The position numbers were made by a program, and so were the translations under genes. 64,000 bases of DNA from positions 3,680,001 to 3,744,000 of the forward strand of contig OY762492.1 of assembly GCA_963665845.2 (NCBI GenBank), read 5' to 3'. Shown here piece after piece: positions 17,338-60,733 of this stretch (its first letter is position 1; each line of letters starts with the position of its first letter). Under the pieces are notes generated by a model. It was not told the origin of the DNA and did no database searches. It saw only the letters and a list, made by a program, of their open reading frames with translations. This stretch comes from Candidatus Poribacteria bacterium. GTDB lineage: Bacteria; Poribacteria; WGA-4E; GCA-2687025.

Positions 17338-17540
17338 GCTCTGACCTTGCGTCTTTAGTTGGGACATGTCGGCATGGGAACGCGGACGTCATCCCCGATG
17401 CCTCTGGATTCCCGCTTACGCGGGAGTATCTGTGTTCAAAGTCAATCATTTTGCGCTTTCCGTAGCGCCGAAAGTCGCCGCGGCGGATATTTTTCGGCAG
17501 TACCGAAGGAGCCGCCGCAGCGAGATTTCGGAAAGGGTTT

Positions 17541-18955
<1,415 letters not shown>

Positions 18956-19040
18956 ATCATCATACAAATGACGGCATGGATCGGCCGGCTGTCGCGCAAA
19001 TGAATGTCATCGCTTGTAGGCTGGCGACTCCAGTTAGCCT

Positions 19041-56153: not shown

Positions 56154-57416
56154 ATGCGCGTTGAACAGTTTTTTGTTTTGGTTAAAAAGAACGACGCCGA
56201 CGCGGTCCGCGCCGCCCTGGATTCCGACCCGTCCCTGTTAGAAGCGTTGGACGGCGATCATCAGCCGATTCATGAGGCGGCGCTGCGCGGGAACGCCGCC
56301 GTCTTGAACGCGCTCATCGAATGCGGAGCCGACATTAACCGAGAAAACGGCTGGGGATGGACGCCGATCGTCTTAGCCGCCTACCATAACCGCCTCGAAG
56401 CGGTACGGCGACTCATCGCGGCGGGGGCGAAGGTCGGCGAAGACGGCGGGAATCCGATACATTACGCTGGTCAAAATCGGCATCAAGAGATATGCCGCCT
56501 TTTGGTTGAACATGGCGCCGTCGATTCGCTTGTCCCCGACGGCGATCCTGACGCGCTGTCAGTTTTCCGCGCCGCTTACGCTTACGACGCCTCAACCCTT
56601 CAGCGACTCTTAAAACGGCGTCCTGATTTGGCGAACGCGCGCGACCGTTACGACCGTACCCCCATGCATGAAGCGGCGACAGGCGGCGCATTGGAGGTTG
56701 TCAAAACGCTCATCGCGGCGGGCGGCGATGTGAACGCCGAGGATGAAGACGGCGAAACGCCCCTGACGCGCGCCGCGGCGCATCGTCAAGAGGAGGTTGT
56801 GGAAACGCTCATCGCCGCCGGCGCGCGCGTCGACCTGTTCTCCGCTGTCCAGTTCAACATACTGGAGGAGGCGCGGCGGCTGCTTGAAGAAAAACCAGAC
56901 CTAGCCCGCGCTGAGCATAACGGACATGCGCTGACCGAATGGGCGGCTGAAGCGGGGTATGTGGAGATGGGGCGGCTGTTGGCGGAATTCGGCGCGGAGA
57001 TCGACATCCATGCAGCCGCCAGCTTTGGATTGACGGAACGCGCCGCGCAGCTTCTGGACGACAACCCTGACCTTGTACATGCGCAGCGCGCGATGGGCGA
57101 ATACGCGCCTCTCCATGCCGCCGCCGAATGCGGACACGCAGAAACGGCCGCGCTGCTCATCCAACGCGGAGCCGACCTGAATCAGAAAAACGGCTGGGGA
57201 TTTCGACCGCTGCATCTGAGCGTTCTGGCGGCGCGGGGGCATGCCCCGACCGAAGCGCATCTGCGTATCACACGCGCGCTGATCGAGAACGGCGCCGATC
57301 TGGAACCTGAAGACGACTACGGACGAACGCCGCTCTCGCTGGCGGAGGGACACTGGACGAAGGGGGAGATCGAACACGCGCTCATCGATCTGCTCCGAAC
57401 TGCTATAGACGCTTAG
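56154..57416 (+). CDS. Ankyrin repeat protein
   Basis: Multiple TPL/PIH.AA..G...V..LI..GAD.N repeats. Confidence 0.93.
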   Translation: MRVEQFFVLVKKNDADAVRAALDSDPSLLEALDGDHQPIHEAALRGNAAVLNALIECGADINRENGWGWTPIVLAAYHNRLEAVRRLIAAGAKVGEDGGNPIHYAGQNRHQEICRLLVEHGAVDSLVPDGDPDALSVFRAAYAYDASTLQRLLKRRPDLANARDRYDRTPMHEAATGGALEVVKTLIAAGGDVNAEDEDGETPLTRAAAHRQEEVVETLIAAGARVDLFSAVQFNILEEARRLLEEKPDLARAEHNGHALTEWAAEAGYVEMGRLLAEFGAEIDIHAAASFGLTERAAQLLDDNPDLVHAQRAMGEYAPLHAAAECGHAETAALLIQRGADLNQKNGWGFRPLHLSVLAARGHAPTEAHLRITRALIENGADLEPEDDYGRTPLSLAEGHWTKGEIEHALIDLLRTAIDA

Positions 57417-57426
57417 AGGCGGCGCG

Positions 57427-58380
57427 ATGAACATTCAGAACAGCGTTTTAGAGGCGGTCGGCGCAACGCCGCTCATTGCCCTTGACCGCATACGCCCAAA
57501 AAACGGCGCGCGCATCCTCTTGAAACTGGAGCTGATGAACCCAGGCGCCAGCATGAAAGACCGCATCGCTCTCCAGATCATCGAAGACGCGGAGGCGGCT
57601 GGGCGTCTGAAACCGGGCGGCGACGTCGTGGAGCTGACCAGCGGCAATACCGGCATCGGTTTGGCGATGGCGTGCGCCGTGAAGGGGTATCGGATGACGG
57701 CGGTCATGTCGGAGGGCAACTCGGTGGAGCGGCGGAGCGTTCTGTCGGCGCTGGGCGCGCGCGTGGAGCTGGTTGCGCAGGCGGGCGGGTCGGCGCCTGG
57801 ACAGGTTTCTAAAGAGGATCTGGAGCTGGTGGAAGAACGGACGCGGGAGCTGGCGCGCGAACTGGGCGCCTTCCGCCCTGACCAGTTCAACAATGAGAGC
57901 AACCCGCGGGCGCATGAGCTTGGAACGGGGCGCGAAATCTGGGAGCAGACGGGCGGACAGGTGGACGCCTTTACAGCGGCGGTCGGCACGGGAGGGACGT
58001 TCGTCGGCGCGGCGCGCGCGTTGAAATCGCGCAATCCGCGCGTGAAATGTTACGCGGTGGAGCCGACGGGCGCGCCGTATCTGGCGGGCGGGGAGATAAC
58101 GAACACGCGCCATCAGATACAGGGCGCCGGGTACGCCGTGACGCCCGGTTTCTGGGATGAGTCGATGGCGGACGGGTATCTCGCCGTTTCGGACAATGAG
58201 GCGGCGGAGGCGGCGCGCCGCTTGGCGCGTCGGGAGGGCGTCCTGGCGGGCTATTCAACAGGGGCGAACGTCGCCGCGGCGGAACGGCTCGCGCGTTCGA
58301 TGCCGCCGAGCGCCGTTGTCGTTACGGTCGCATGCGATTCAGGGATGCGGTATTTGAGCGAGAACCTTTACCGTCTCTGA
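57427..58380 (+). CDS. Cysteine synthase family PLP-dependent enzyme
   Basis: KLELMNPGASMKDRIA, TSGNTGIGLA, VGTGGT, HQIQGAG, DSGMRYLS. Confidence 0.92.
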   Translation: MNIQNSVLEAVGATPLIALDRIRPKNGARILLKLELMNPGASMKDRIALQIIEDAEAAGRLKPGGDVVELTSGNTGIGLAMACAVKGYRMTAVMSEGNSVERRSVLSALGARVELVAQAGGSAPGQVSKEDLELVEERTRELARELGAFRPDQFNNESNPRAHELGTGREIWEQTGGQVDAFTAAVGTGGTFVGAARALKSRNPRVKCYAVEPTGAPYLAGGEITNTRHQIQGAGYAVTPGFWDESMADGYLAVSDNEAAEAARRLARREGVLAGYSTGANVAAAERLARSMPPSAVVVTVACDSGMRYLSENLYRL

Positions 58381-58400: not shown

Positions 58401-58763
58401 TTATGCAGAATCTGCTGCATCGTTCGCACGATCGCTTGCAGCATTTAGCGCATTCTTCTTATTATCCAGTATCTTTGCTAATTCCACATTCGAATCTATA
58501 AGTTTTGTATAAAATTCAGTATTCGATTTCTTTATATCCGCATAAAGCTTATTATTCGATTCATGCATATCTGCATAAAGCTTATTATTCGATTCGTTCA
58601 TATCTGTGTAAACTTTATTATTCGATTTGTTTATATCTGCATAAATTTCTGCCATTCGCTCACGAGTTTTGAGAGTTTCTCTAACTAGCCATATAAGTAA
58701 TATAAGAATGGCGATCTCAGGACTTTTTTCGATTACGGCAGGCAACAATGTTGAGAGATTCAT
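58401..58763 (-). CDS. Low-GC membrane-anchored protein with 11-residue repeats
   Basis: N-terminal TM (IAILILLIWLV), then YADINKSNNKV/YTDMNESNNKL/YADMHESNNKL/YADIKKSNTEF (33-bp units); GGAG upstream. Confidence 0.7.
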   Translation of the reverse strand: MNLSTLLPAVIEKSPEIAILILLIWLVRETLKTRERMAEIYADINKSNNKVYTDMNESNNKLYADMHESNNKLYADIKKSNTEFYTKLIDSNVELAKILDNKKNALNAASDRANDAADSA

Positions 58764-58837: not shown

Positions 58838-59053
58838 TCAAAGAACGCCTTGCTTCTTCAGCTCCGCTAGCATAAATGCCTGCGAGCGGTCCCCTTTCAG
58901 GCTGTTGCATGCGACGCACAACAGTTGCAGGTTCTTCTCATGGTCAGAACCGCCTCTGCTGCGCGGAACGATATGGTCTATCGTAAAGTTGCAGAACGGA
59001 AACATCGCGCGGCAACCGGCGCAAGGCCCCTCCTGTTTGCCGAGAAACAGATA
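58838..59053 (-). pseudogene. 5'-truncated HNH endonuclease domain (probable remnant of an MTase-HNH gene)
   Basis: CAGC..IDHIVPRSRGGSDH..NLQLLCVACNSLKG, homologous to the C-terminus of 59225-60733; the apparent start lies inside a repeat. Confidence 0.75.
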
Positions 59054-59139
59054 CTCCCGCACAAACGGGAATCCAGAGGCGGCGCAGAAACGGTCCGCGT
59101 TCGCCCTCCGGCATGTCCCAACTTAAGACGCAAGATCAG
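59054..59139. repeat. MITE-A arm beginning at a truncated palindrome
   Basis: CTCCCGCACAAACGGGAATCCAGAGGC..CATGTCCCAACTTAAGACGCAAGATCAG; the usual GTCATT left part is missing. Confidence 0.8.
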
Positions 59140-59224
59140 TTGCTGACGGCTTCGCTTGCGCAATTCCGGGCATTCATGTAATGTGGAGGCGTCAGGGTCT
59201 GCTGCGCTTTCTCCAGGAGGGTAG

Positions 59225-60733
59225 ATGAAACAAGAAACGCGCCCGGCCAACTTCGCTTCGCAAACGATATGGACAGGCGACAACCTGGACATCATGCGCG
59301 GCATGAACTCCGACAGCGTCGACCTGATCTACCTTGATCCGCCCTTCAACAGCAAGGCAAACTACGCCGCCCCTATCGGAAGCAAAGCGGCCGGCGCCGC
59401 CTTCAAAGACACCTGGGGGCTGGACGATGTGAATCTGGTCTGGCACGGCGAGATCAAGCATGAATATCCCGGCCTATACGCTCTCCTGACGGCAACGCGC
59501 GAGATTCATGGCGCCTCCATGATGAGCTACCTGATCTACATGTCCATACGCATTATGGAAATGCGCAGGCTGTTGAAACCGGCAGGCTCCATCTATCTCC
59601 ATTGCGACGACACAGCGGGCGCGTATCTGAAACTGCTGATGGACTCGGTGTTCGGGGCGCGGAACTTCCGCAATGAGCTGATTTGGAAACGGACGGCTGG
59701 AAAGGGCTTAAACCCGACGCGATTCATGCGTAACACCGACATCCTCTTACTTTACGGAAAGGGACAAAAGGCGACGTGGAATCAGCAGTATCTTCCATTT
59801 CCGCCTGATTTCGCAGAGGGTTGGCGCGACGATCCGGTTAATGGAAAATGGCAGCCAGCGGACTTGACAGGCGGCAAGGGCGGCTCCGAATCCGCCTACG
59901 CTGAATTCAATGGAGCGCTCCCGCCTGCGGGGCGAGCGTGGGCGCCGCCCCGCCGTGAGAAGTTTCCTCCCGGCGTTGATCTGCCCGACGACTACGAGGA
60001 GCTGACGCCTCTGGAAAAATGCGAGGCGCTGGATCGGGCGGGGATGATCCATTGGTCGTCTGGCGGCAAGCCCTACTACCGGAAGTTTCTTAGCGCCCTG
60101 AAGGGCGTTTACGCCTCTACGCTGATTGAGGACATCCCGCCCGCGAAGGGAGATGAGAGGCTAGGCTATCCGACGCAAAAGCCGCTGGCGCTTCTCCGCC
60201 GCATCATCAAGGCGTCCTCGAACGAGGGCGATATGGTCATGGATCCGTTCTGCGGCTGCGCGACAACCTGCATCGCCGCCGAACAGCTACAGCGAGACTG
60301 GGTCGGCATCGACATCTCGGAGAAGGCGGCGGATCTTGTTCAGTCGCGCCTGCGGGAAGAAGTCGGGCTGACATACCAAGGCGCGCATCGGACCGACATT
60401 CCCAAACGAACCGACTTGGGCAAGATTCCGAAATACAATTGCGCCGAGAACCGCCGTTATCTTTACGGACAGCAGGGCGGTTACTGCACTGCTTGCGGGA
60501 CGCATTTTGAGCCGCGGCATTTTCAGGTGGATCATATCATCCCGCGCGCGAATGGCGGGAACGACCATATCAGCAACCTGCAGCTTCTGTGCGGCTCATG
60601 CAACGCGCATAAAGGCACAAAGTCGCATGAGGAGCTGATCAAGCTGCTGACCGATAAGGGATGGATCAAGCGGCGGCAAGAGATGATCGCTAAAGGAAAC
60701 CGCCAATCCAAACAGGCGCCGCCGAACGAATAG
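59225..60733 (+). CDS. DNA methyltransferase fused to a C-terminal HNH endonuclease
   Basis: DLIYLDPPFNS, GSIYLHCD, YPTQKP, DPFCGCAT, then CTAC..VDHIIPRANGGNDHISNLQLLCGSCNAHKG. Confidence 0.92.
   Translation: MKQETRPANFASQTIWTGDNLDIMRGMNSDSVDLIYLDPPFNSKANYAAPIGSKAAGAAFKDTWGLDDVNLVWHGEIKHEYPGLYALLTATREIHGASMMSYLIYMSIRIMEMRRLLKPAGSIYLHCDDTAGAYLKLLMDSVFGARNFRNELIWKRTAGKGLNPTRFMRNTDILLLYGKGQKATWNQQYLPFPPDFAEGWRDDPVNGKWQPADLTGGKGGSESAYAEFNGALPPAGRAWAPPRREKFPPGVDLPDDYEELTPLEKCEALDRAGMIHWSSGGKPYYRKFLSALKGVYASTLIEDIPPAKGDERLGYPTQKPLALLRRIIKASSNEGDMVMDPFCGCATTCIAAEQLQRDWVGIDISEKAADLVQSRLREEVGLTYQGAHRTDIPKRTDLGKIPKYNCAENRRYLYGQQGGYCTACGTHFEPRHFQVDHIIPRANGGNDHISNLQLLCGSCNAHKGTKSHEELIKLLTDKGWIKRRQEMIAKGNRQSKQAPPNE

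Follow-up and report, generated by a model that had tools for sequence, protein, structure and literature searches.

A bridge recombinase probably mistook a site within a host gene for its donor and recombined this site with an NTS/dRS3-type repeat, as judged from the sequences of the junction, of the intact gene in a relative and of the predicted guides. The adjacent 5′ part of the gene is missing, and we infer that the recombinase was the agent of its deletion. The case comprises one clear event, one assembled genome and one ortholog allele. The genome under study (G000; 3.98 Mb, three contigs) is compared throughout with a same-genus relative (G001), and coordinates are those of the window, the whole 64,000-nt stretch of DNA that was analysed, unless contig C1 is given.

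The orphan junction and the truncated MTase-HNH gene

The features at and around the junction are as follows:

58838–59055, minus strand: 3′ remnant of an MTase-HNH gene (HNH domain, 72 codons, open frame; Pfam HNH E 6e-13)
59047–59053, plus strand: left-donor-like heptamer ACAGATA, antisense of host-gene His-Leu-Leu codons (ACAGATG in the ortholog)
59054–59055, plus strand: CT core, the last bases common to the remnant and the intact ortholog (TT in intact repeats)
59056–59140, plus strand: right half and usual tail of an NTS/dRS3-type hairpin repeat without its GTCATT left part; the right target is CCCGC
57427–58380, plus strand: PALP-family (cysteine synthase-like) gene, a synteny anchor common to G001
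56154–57416: ankyrin gene, a synteny anchor common to G001
59225–60733, plus strand: intact MTase-HNH paralog of another subfamily, right of the repeat and distinct from the lost gene

Positions 59047–59060 read ACAGATACTCCCGC (ACAGATA-CT-CCCGC), the reverse complement of 17420–17433 and the sequence of an IS110 right junction. The 14-nt identity with 17433–17420 (minus strand) reported in a preliminary description of this DNA is therefore exact. The likeness which that description saw between the two loci holds for these 14 nt, while the further ~85 nt to the right reflect membership of a common repeat family only. As also described, the arm right of the core lacks GTCATT; it is otherwise ordinary, with 184 arm-like matches of at least 75 nt in the genome, the best other copies being 86–89% identical. 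The genome-wide check proposed for ACAGATACTCCC away from an IS110 gave nine sites in G000. The IS right end TTGACTTTGAAC precedes eight of them, and host sequence precedes the ninth, which is the junction studied here; the ninth full IS copy has a CCTG end and falls outside these matches. The crossover lies exactly at the core, since homology to the ortholog ends at 59055 and the repeat begins at 59056.

The match was said to be unlikely by chance, and the counts agree. At genome composition the 9-mer has p = 1.8e-6. For the 44 repeat right halves whose left side is neither canonical nor an IS end this amounts to 8e-5, and for the full set of 972 oriented right halves in G000 to 1.7e-3. The remaining right halves carry the normal left part (815), a common variant (100), an IS end (9) or a palindromic arrangement (4). 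Among the 44 with odd left sides, only the orphan site matches the left donor at 7/7 positions, the next best reaching 4/7; genome-wide, 66 of 391,972 CT sites do so. The core position is TT in 813 of the 815 canonical repeats and CT in none. The junction, as read from the assembled sequence, is confirmed as real.

An ancestral locus was sought in 40 relatives, and the syntenic locus was found in G001, where an intact 439-aa MTase-HNH gene (minus strand) follows the ankyrin and cysteine-synthase-like genes; the flank left of the junction is syntenic with G001 for ~6 kb. The remnant and the 3′ end of the ortholog are identical at 191 of 219 positions (87%) in a gapless alignment that stops at the CT core (59055). 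At the break the ortholog reads ACAGATG-CT-TATGC, antisense of His-Lys-His-Leu-Leu, and the donor-like bases are thus host coding sequence. On this evidence the G001 allele would represent the ancestral state. The loss of the 5′ end of an HNH gene at the junction is borne out by the comparison of the 72-codon remnant with this intact copy, and in G001 the HNH domain is the end of the 439-aa fusion, not a stand-alone gene. The ortholog natively carries donor-like bases to the extent of AGCATCTGT, 8/9 bases, and not the exact AGTATCTGT. A GTG inside the repeat offers a possible start for a 74-aa ORF (58838–59062) that would include the remnant.

The ortholog has PF01555 and HNH domains and is matched by PADLOC MTase_II (E 3e-57; N6/N4 MTase plus nuclease), so that its domain annotation suggests an anti-phage or restriction role. 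The earlier view of an event acting on a defence gene stands as far as this MTase/HNH annotation goes; there is no sign that the function of the gene caused the hit, and the genome has more than 20 related HNH-bearing paralogs. With the HNH remnant as query, tblastn gave 29 matches in G000, most of them ending long ORFs.

Three further observations concern the gene family and the locus. More than 20 long ORFs of G000 end in related HNH domains, and the G001 gene matches paralogs at both ends with its middle unmatched, which suggests that specificity regions are swapped among MTase-HNH paralogs. ATG-CT-TATGC occurs at the same place in five intact paralogs (C1:471610, 2514492, 2563736, 975637 and 2545071) and forms a near-donor whose left arm is weaker. 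A 120-aa ORF (58401–58763, minus strand) with 11-residue repeats separates the cysteine-synthase-like gene from the remnant; it is absent from the corresponding place in G001 and has no Pfam match.

The resident IS110, its target repeat and its predicted guides

A full copy of the element lies in the window:

17425–18966, minus strand: full IS110 copy, 1542 nt, in the same repeat family (left junction CCGTCA-TT-TGTAT, right junction ACAGATA-CT-CCCGC)
17541–18767, minus strand: IS110 recombinase ORF (DEDD_Tnp_IS110 PF01548 E 6e-18; Transposase_20 PF02371 E 6e-17)
18760–18925, minus strand: predicted bridge RNA with two long hairpins (folding z −4.2)
18897–18904, minus strand: predicted left target guide ACCGTCTT, for target NNCGTCAT with position 7 unmatched, by analogy with IS621
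18863–18869, minus strand: predicted right target guide GCGGGAG, the reverse complement of CT-CCCGC, followed by TA
18810–18817, minus strand: predicted left donor guide ACAGATAC (ACAGATGC in copies C1:746704 and C1:1533509)
18786–18792, minus strand: predicted right donor guide ATACAAG (ATGTAAG at C1:746704; ATATAAG at C1:1533509)

There are ten IS110 copies in G000, nine full and one truncated, and all of them occupy one position of the NTS/dRS3-type repeat. The ten left junctions (CGTCA-TT-TGTAT, with TACAT in one copy) and nine right junctions (ACAGATA-CT-CC) are in one register, which indicates fixed-position insertion without target duplication. Left cores are TT in 10/10 junctions and right cores CT in 9/9; the target core TT and the donor core CT are thus not both CT, and have the second base T in common. 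TT cores are reported to be functional for IS621 (PMC11208158). The predicted RNA at the IS left end contains ACCGTCTT, GCGGGAG, ACAGATAC and ATACAAG in the IS621 order, and from these matches and the analogy with IS621 (PMC11208160) the four segments would be bridge RNA guides. Across copies the donor loop reads ACAGATAC in six, ACAGATGT in two and ACAGATGC in two. The lowest-energy fold of the predicted RNA pairs parts of the donor loop.

Several minor features of the element family were seen alongside these. At the ten IS110 left ends of G000 the donor and target loops vary among copies and look shuffled; C1:1533509, for example, combines the common target loop start with a divergent donor loop. 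A bridge-RNA-like segment at C1:2788100–2788333 has its own guide variants and no adjoining transposase match, and could act in trans. TTGACT and TATGAT, spaced by 17 nt (17425–17445 plus 18959–18966), would form a circle-junction promoter; the orphan junction has no −35 box.

The repeat family is represented in G000 by 888 exact matches to the half CCCG-N6-CGGGAATC (about 900 repeats) and follows the NTS/dRS3 pattern, an ATTCCC-N8-GGGAAT palindrome with CGTC on the left and CYRG on the right, the copy at the junction being without its left flank. The G000 core fits CGTCATTCCCGCGMAVGCGGGAATCYRG of the NTS/dRS3 repeats (Chenal et al. 2025, PMC11893778), with 427 and 353 instances of the two commonest cores; the commonest core differs in having T where the consensus has M. 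The term IS110 is absent from the main text of that paper (PMC11893778). In C1:630785, 2683231 and 758334, GTACT replaces GTCATT before the right half, which may be a scar or a repeat subfamily.

Routes to the junction

The pre-event site, as represented by the G001 allele, matches the donor guides of the copy at C1:1533509 at 12/12 positions and those of C1:746704 at 11/12. Among the 12-mers of the 1320-nt ortholog, compared on both strands with three resident guide sets, it is the sole perfect match, and the next best has four mismatches. The lost side of the break fits too: the three bases after the core are TAT, and one of the triplets TGT, TAC and TAT comes next at only 2.4% of CT sites. 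A repeat-linked deletion or insertion that merely landed on these bases would have had opportunities in a genome with about 900 repeats, heavy shuffling relative to G001 and 44 right halves with odd left sides, but it would have had to break on the sole 12/12 guide match of ~2,600 gene positions, in register with the repeat core, and is very improbable. A guided reaction is also supported by the core pattern, which is as in true insertions (TT left, 10/10; CT right, 9/9). The joining of a cryptic donor-like host site to a repeat, one of the possibilities put forward initially, is accordingly supported by: (i) the native site in the ortholog, (ii) the end of homology at the core and (iii) the unique guide match.

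For the guided deletion we envisage that a bridge RNA with a donor loop fitting ACAGATG-CT-TA would load the recombinase, which would bind the gene site as if it were the IS circle junction. The bound site would synapse with the repeat in direct orientation, strands would be exchanged next to the core, and the intervening DNA would be released. This would be insertion chemistry inside one chromosome, and the excised circle would be without an origin. Programmed excision between donor and target has been shown for IS621, and cleavage next to the core is described in PMC11208158.

In the two G000 copies with the best-matching guides (C1:746704 and C1:1533509) the recombinase frames are broken. 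All 11 IS left junctions found in G001 begin TACATGATTA, as in the C1:746704 type, and this type, as typed by left junctions, is probably older than the split between G000 and G001. In G001 the perfect site remains intact in the presence of at least eight IS left ends of matching type, which argues that the reaction is rare. Perfect donor 12-mers are absent from G000 for all three guides; by estimate well under one would be expected per guide, so this count is no evidence of depletion.

The reciprocal junction was not found in G000, either as GTCATT followed by bases like the right donor or with four patterns that allow mismatches; the matches listed (12 of 105 for the loosest pattern) are intact paralogs and unrelated sequences. 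In G000 the stretch to the right of the ancestral core is confined to the five intact paralogs and never follows a repeat left half, ortholog positions 551–880 have no match in G000, and the missing DNA amounts to at least 1.1 kb. Since the reciprocal product of a deletion is expected to be lost, the lack of a reciprocal junction together with the missing adjacent 5′ part points to a deletion. A guided inversion or translocation whose reciprocal half was lost later appears highly unlikely. The same reaction does give inversions in E. coli (PMC11208160), and the gene after the ortholog in G001 sits 2 Mb away in G000, but the right-donor side occurs only in the intact paralogs, the gene middle is unmatched and the displaced block keeps the orientation of the cysK block. 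The inversion entertained at the outset is thus not supported, no reciprocal junction having been found among the matches listed for G000. In general, gene order in G000 and G001 is interrupted every few kb; a single 20-kb piece of G001 corresponds to four regions of G000 that lie far apart. The gene to the right of the intact repeat arm is without a syntenic counterpart in G001.

Twelve residue changes distinguish the remnant from the ortholog. In seven of these changes the residue of the remnant is present in 0 or 1 of 119 homologs (the first codon, altered by the junction, is excluded), and because the remnant has decayed in this way the event looks old. A misassembly or chimeric read would not be expected to produce decay at near-invariant residues from the joining of an intact gene, and the site lies inside a 3.95-Mb contig; despite the frameshifted paralog on contig C3, which speaks for an assembly artefact, we regard this explanation as scarcely credible.

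One of the seven changes, His to Tyr, replaces the G at donor position 7 by A, the base found in the IS. The His at the junction place is kept in 120/120 homologs, so the ancestor had G at this position and A is derived. On this strand, G to A is the change most often seen in the remnant, where it affects 9 of 58 G; the figure for the intact neighbour is 5%. Decay can account for the A, although decay alone would yield it at about 10–15%. Position 7 of the IS621 donor is tolerant of mismatches (PMC11208160). Three of the seven decay changes fall within the 4 of 71 codons next to the junction (p 0.005 for this window, which was picked post hoc); with the adjacent pair taken as one event p becomes 0.04, and with all 28 differences 0.16. 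Such a cluster beside the junction would fit processing against an IS end.

This bears on whether the repeat was empty or occupied. Within the guided reading we favour the direct route, in which the gene site was joined to an empty repeat, and place it a little short of an even chance. Alternatively, the repeat held an IS110, and the recombinase joined the IS right junction to the cryptic donor, so that both the IS and the 5′ part of the gene were lost; a variant in which a donor-to-donor insertion into the gene was later resolved would lead to the same end product. We consider an occupied repeat a serious but rather less probable starting point. It would account for the A at position 7 and for the GAA-ACAGATACT look of the left flank, right junctions have been used against upstream CT sites elsewhere (three scars in G000, four in G001 and one truncated IS), and donor-only and half-match reactions are documented (bioRxiv 2026.08.31.748434; 2025.05.14.653916). 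However, cleavage by the core leaves position 7 on the host strand (PMC11208158), so that the A would need an extra conversion, and the IS is present in only 10 of about 900 repeats. Half-match excision, moreover, is described as mostly copying out one strand, which leaves the chromosome intact, and a reinserted expanded circle was not found in G000. IS-specific bases beyond those of the host, such as the TTGACT −35 box, are absent at the junction, where position 7 alone resembles the IS. The flank, which has a gapless alignment to the ortholog, does not qualify as a remnant of an IS110 right end. Nor does the locus belong to an expanded IS110, the nearest same-strand left junction lying 235 kb upstream with its own right end.

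Ordinary repair could also have joined an IS110 end to look-alike gene bases without any guide. The IS end GAACACAGATACT is close to the gene sequence GAACAACAGATGCT, which would explain the A at position 7; another genome (L187) has a right-end remnant of at least ~70 nt without a transposase match, and at C1:1481910 a repeat is joined at a plain CCTCC microhomology. Yet only one of 209 gene–IS microhomologies of at least 8/9 touches the IS end, G000 is without any longer right-end remnant, and the match on the lost side (2.4%) is not predicted by such a deletion. We therefore consider host microhomology repair unlikely, and the plain form of the earlier suggestion that an IS was inserted and then deleted, leaving ~12 bp, is disfavoured by the same count of 1/209.

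As for the consequences of a guided deletion, the event was probably an accident of a short guide, with no function, and, being one event, probably near neutral. That IS110 donor loops work as an engine of natural RNA-guided deletion where target repeats number in the hundreds is a more speculative proposition, which we put forward tentatively and hold to be somewhat doubtful. If it were true, any host 11–12-mer fitting a donor loop would pass for an end of the element and undergo recombination with an empty repeat nearby; host genes would be removed with no IS left behind, and donor-loop variants among copies would widen the range of vulnerable sites. The His-Lys-His codons of the MTase-HNH family would already supply the core and the right donor arm, and orphan junctions would form a searchable fossil record of bridge-RNA activity.

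Other joins and relation to known systems

The IS110-type element family is usually described as leaving no scars. In G000, the IS110 at C1:469929–470372 is reduced to 444 nt: it breaks off at an internal CT, where the right target is attached. This truncated copy lies directly upstream of a further MTase-HNH gene. At C1:3524954, 3450722 and 1919881 a 12-nt piece resembling the IS left end lies between GTCATT (or GTCTTT) and the right target; a fourth match to this scar pattern lies outside any repeat and was left out. G001 has four scars (L226, L229, L232 and L034; 11–12 nt), of which three are identical, TACATGATTA-CT, and one is shorter. Joins of the form X-CT-right-target thus recur, and they show that the IS right junction can serve as a partner.

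A possible orphan of the opposite, left hand lies at C1:523376–523530, where a repeat left half is joined at TT to TGTATG in a cut 150-nt gene fragment, which we take to derive from a multi-copy repeat-protein gene, TolB/PD40-like. Three paralogs read ATATAGA-TT-TGTATG, 0.04–0.13 such matches being expected among 95 loose candidates, and a true ortholog of the junction was not found in G001; as a second orphan this site is only suggestive. Two other candidates were rejected: at C1:1274027 G001 natively has nearly the same bases, and at C1:1481910 the join falls on the CCTCC of a ribosome-binding site, the G001 sequence there showing no resemblance to the donor.

Orphans like the present one were also sought more widely. 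In 185,579 species genomes there were 62 matches to the pattern, and none of the 56 resolved was such an orphan: these 56 have an IS-type right end (42 with a transposase match, 13 cut by the contig end and 1 remnant), and the other six are without a repeat tail. Among the 12 CT-core repeats of G001, those resolved (L035 apart) include no orphan of this kind, and the junction pattern has no match in six other genomes of the family (completeness 61–95%). In strain-level metagenome contigs the DNA pattern gave 0 matches, and the protein search gave only homologs at most 72% identical in the best segment.

The closest precedent comes from Durrant et al. 2024 (PMC11208160), who observed that IS621 acting on a donor-like E. 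coli site gave six deletions and two inversions of 50–537 kb. That case resembles ours in the use of a chromosomal donor-like site as a recombination end without a donor plasmid, in the CT core and in the repeat targets (PMC11208160). Its setting was an engineered assay, in which allele frequencies were 0.001–0.023 (PMC11208160), whereas the G000 junction is natural, lies in an assembled chromosome, has decayed, has a known intact allele and retains no IS. The natural context of donor-like recombination was named as future work by the same authors (PMC11208160).

The resident element and IS621 (PMC11208160; PMC11208158; PMC13626964) are alike in their DEDD and Tnp domains, 5′ non-coding RNA and four guides, and further in 14-nt target and donor, a repeat target and promoter halves across the circle junction. 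The G000 donor ACAGATACTTG is close to the ACAGTATCTTG of IS621 (PMC11208160). The G000 element differs in its TT target core as against a CT donor core, in donor loops that vary within the genome and in its NTS/dRS3 hairpin target.

Natural donor matches away from the canonical ends are described by Hu et al. (bioRxiv 2026.08.14.744561) and Xie et al. (2026.08.31.748434), together with partial circles, inversions and translocations of IS110 loci. The loci in these preprints were filtered for an IS110 gene and are mostly one-sided matches, whereas the present junction is element-free and its ancestral site matches both donor arms. One-sided donor matches also occur in the off-target insertions that both groups report, and donor-like off-targets are reported to dominate for IS622 in human cells. 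ISPpu9 and ISPpu10 (PMC12288879; bioRxiv 2026.03.19.712850) are REP-targeting IS110s with alternative circles and IS-bounded amplifications; their rearrangements, as described there, keep IS copies or modules at the ends.

In the literature covered, which took in freely accessible papers and the main texts of bioRxiv preprints, we saw no description of a natural IS-free junction whose ancestral allele is known. The chemistry is known from the laboratory; what is new is a natural, element-free product with the substrate and a predicted guide in hand. The founding paper left open whether donor-like recombination reshapes genomes naturally (PMC11208160), and the present locus is a base-resolved natural candidate in which substrate, product and a matching predicted guide can be compared. 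Bridge recombinases are under development as editors, and donor-like genomic sites are a known off-target class. The junction also provides a search signature for IS-free rearrangements, which pipelines requiring an IS110 gene would miss.

Two minor observations come from the wider comparison. In G001, L043 has an internal right end that resembles the IS end but has another left donor, ACCGATG-CT; its match to the G000 element is limited to the final 32 nt. IS110s that are ~38–41% identical in protein (L160–L221) share the donor and the NTS target across several phyla.
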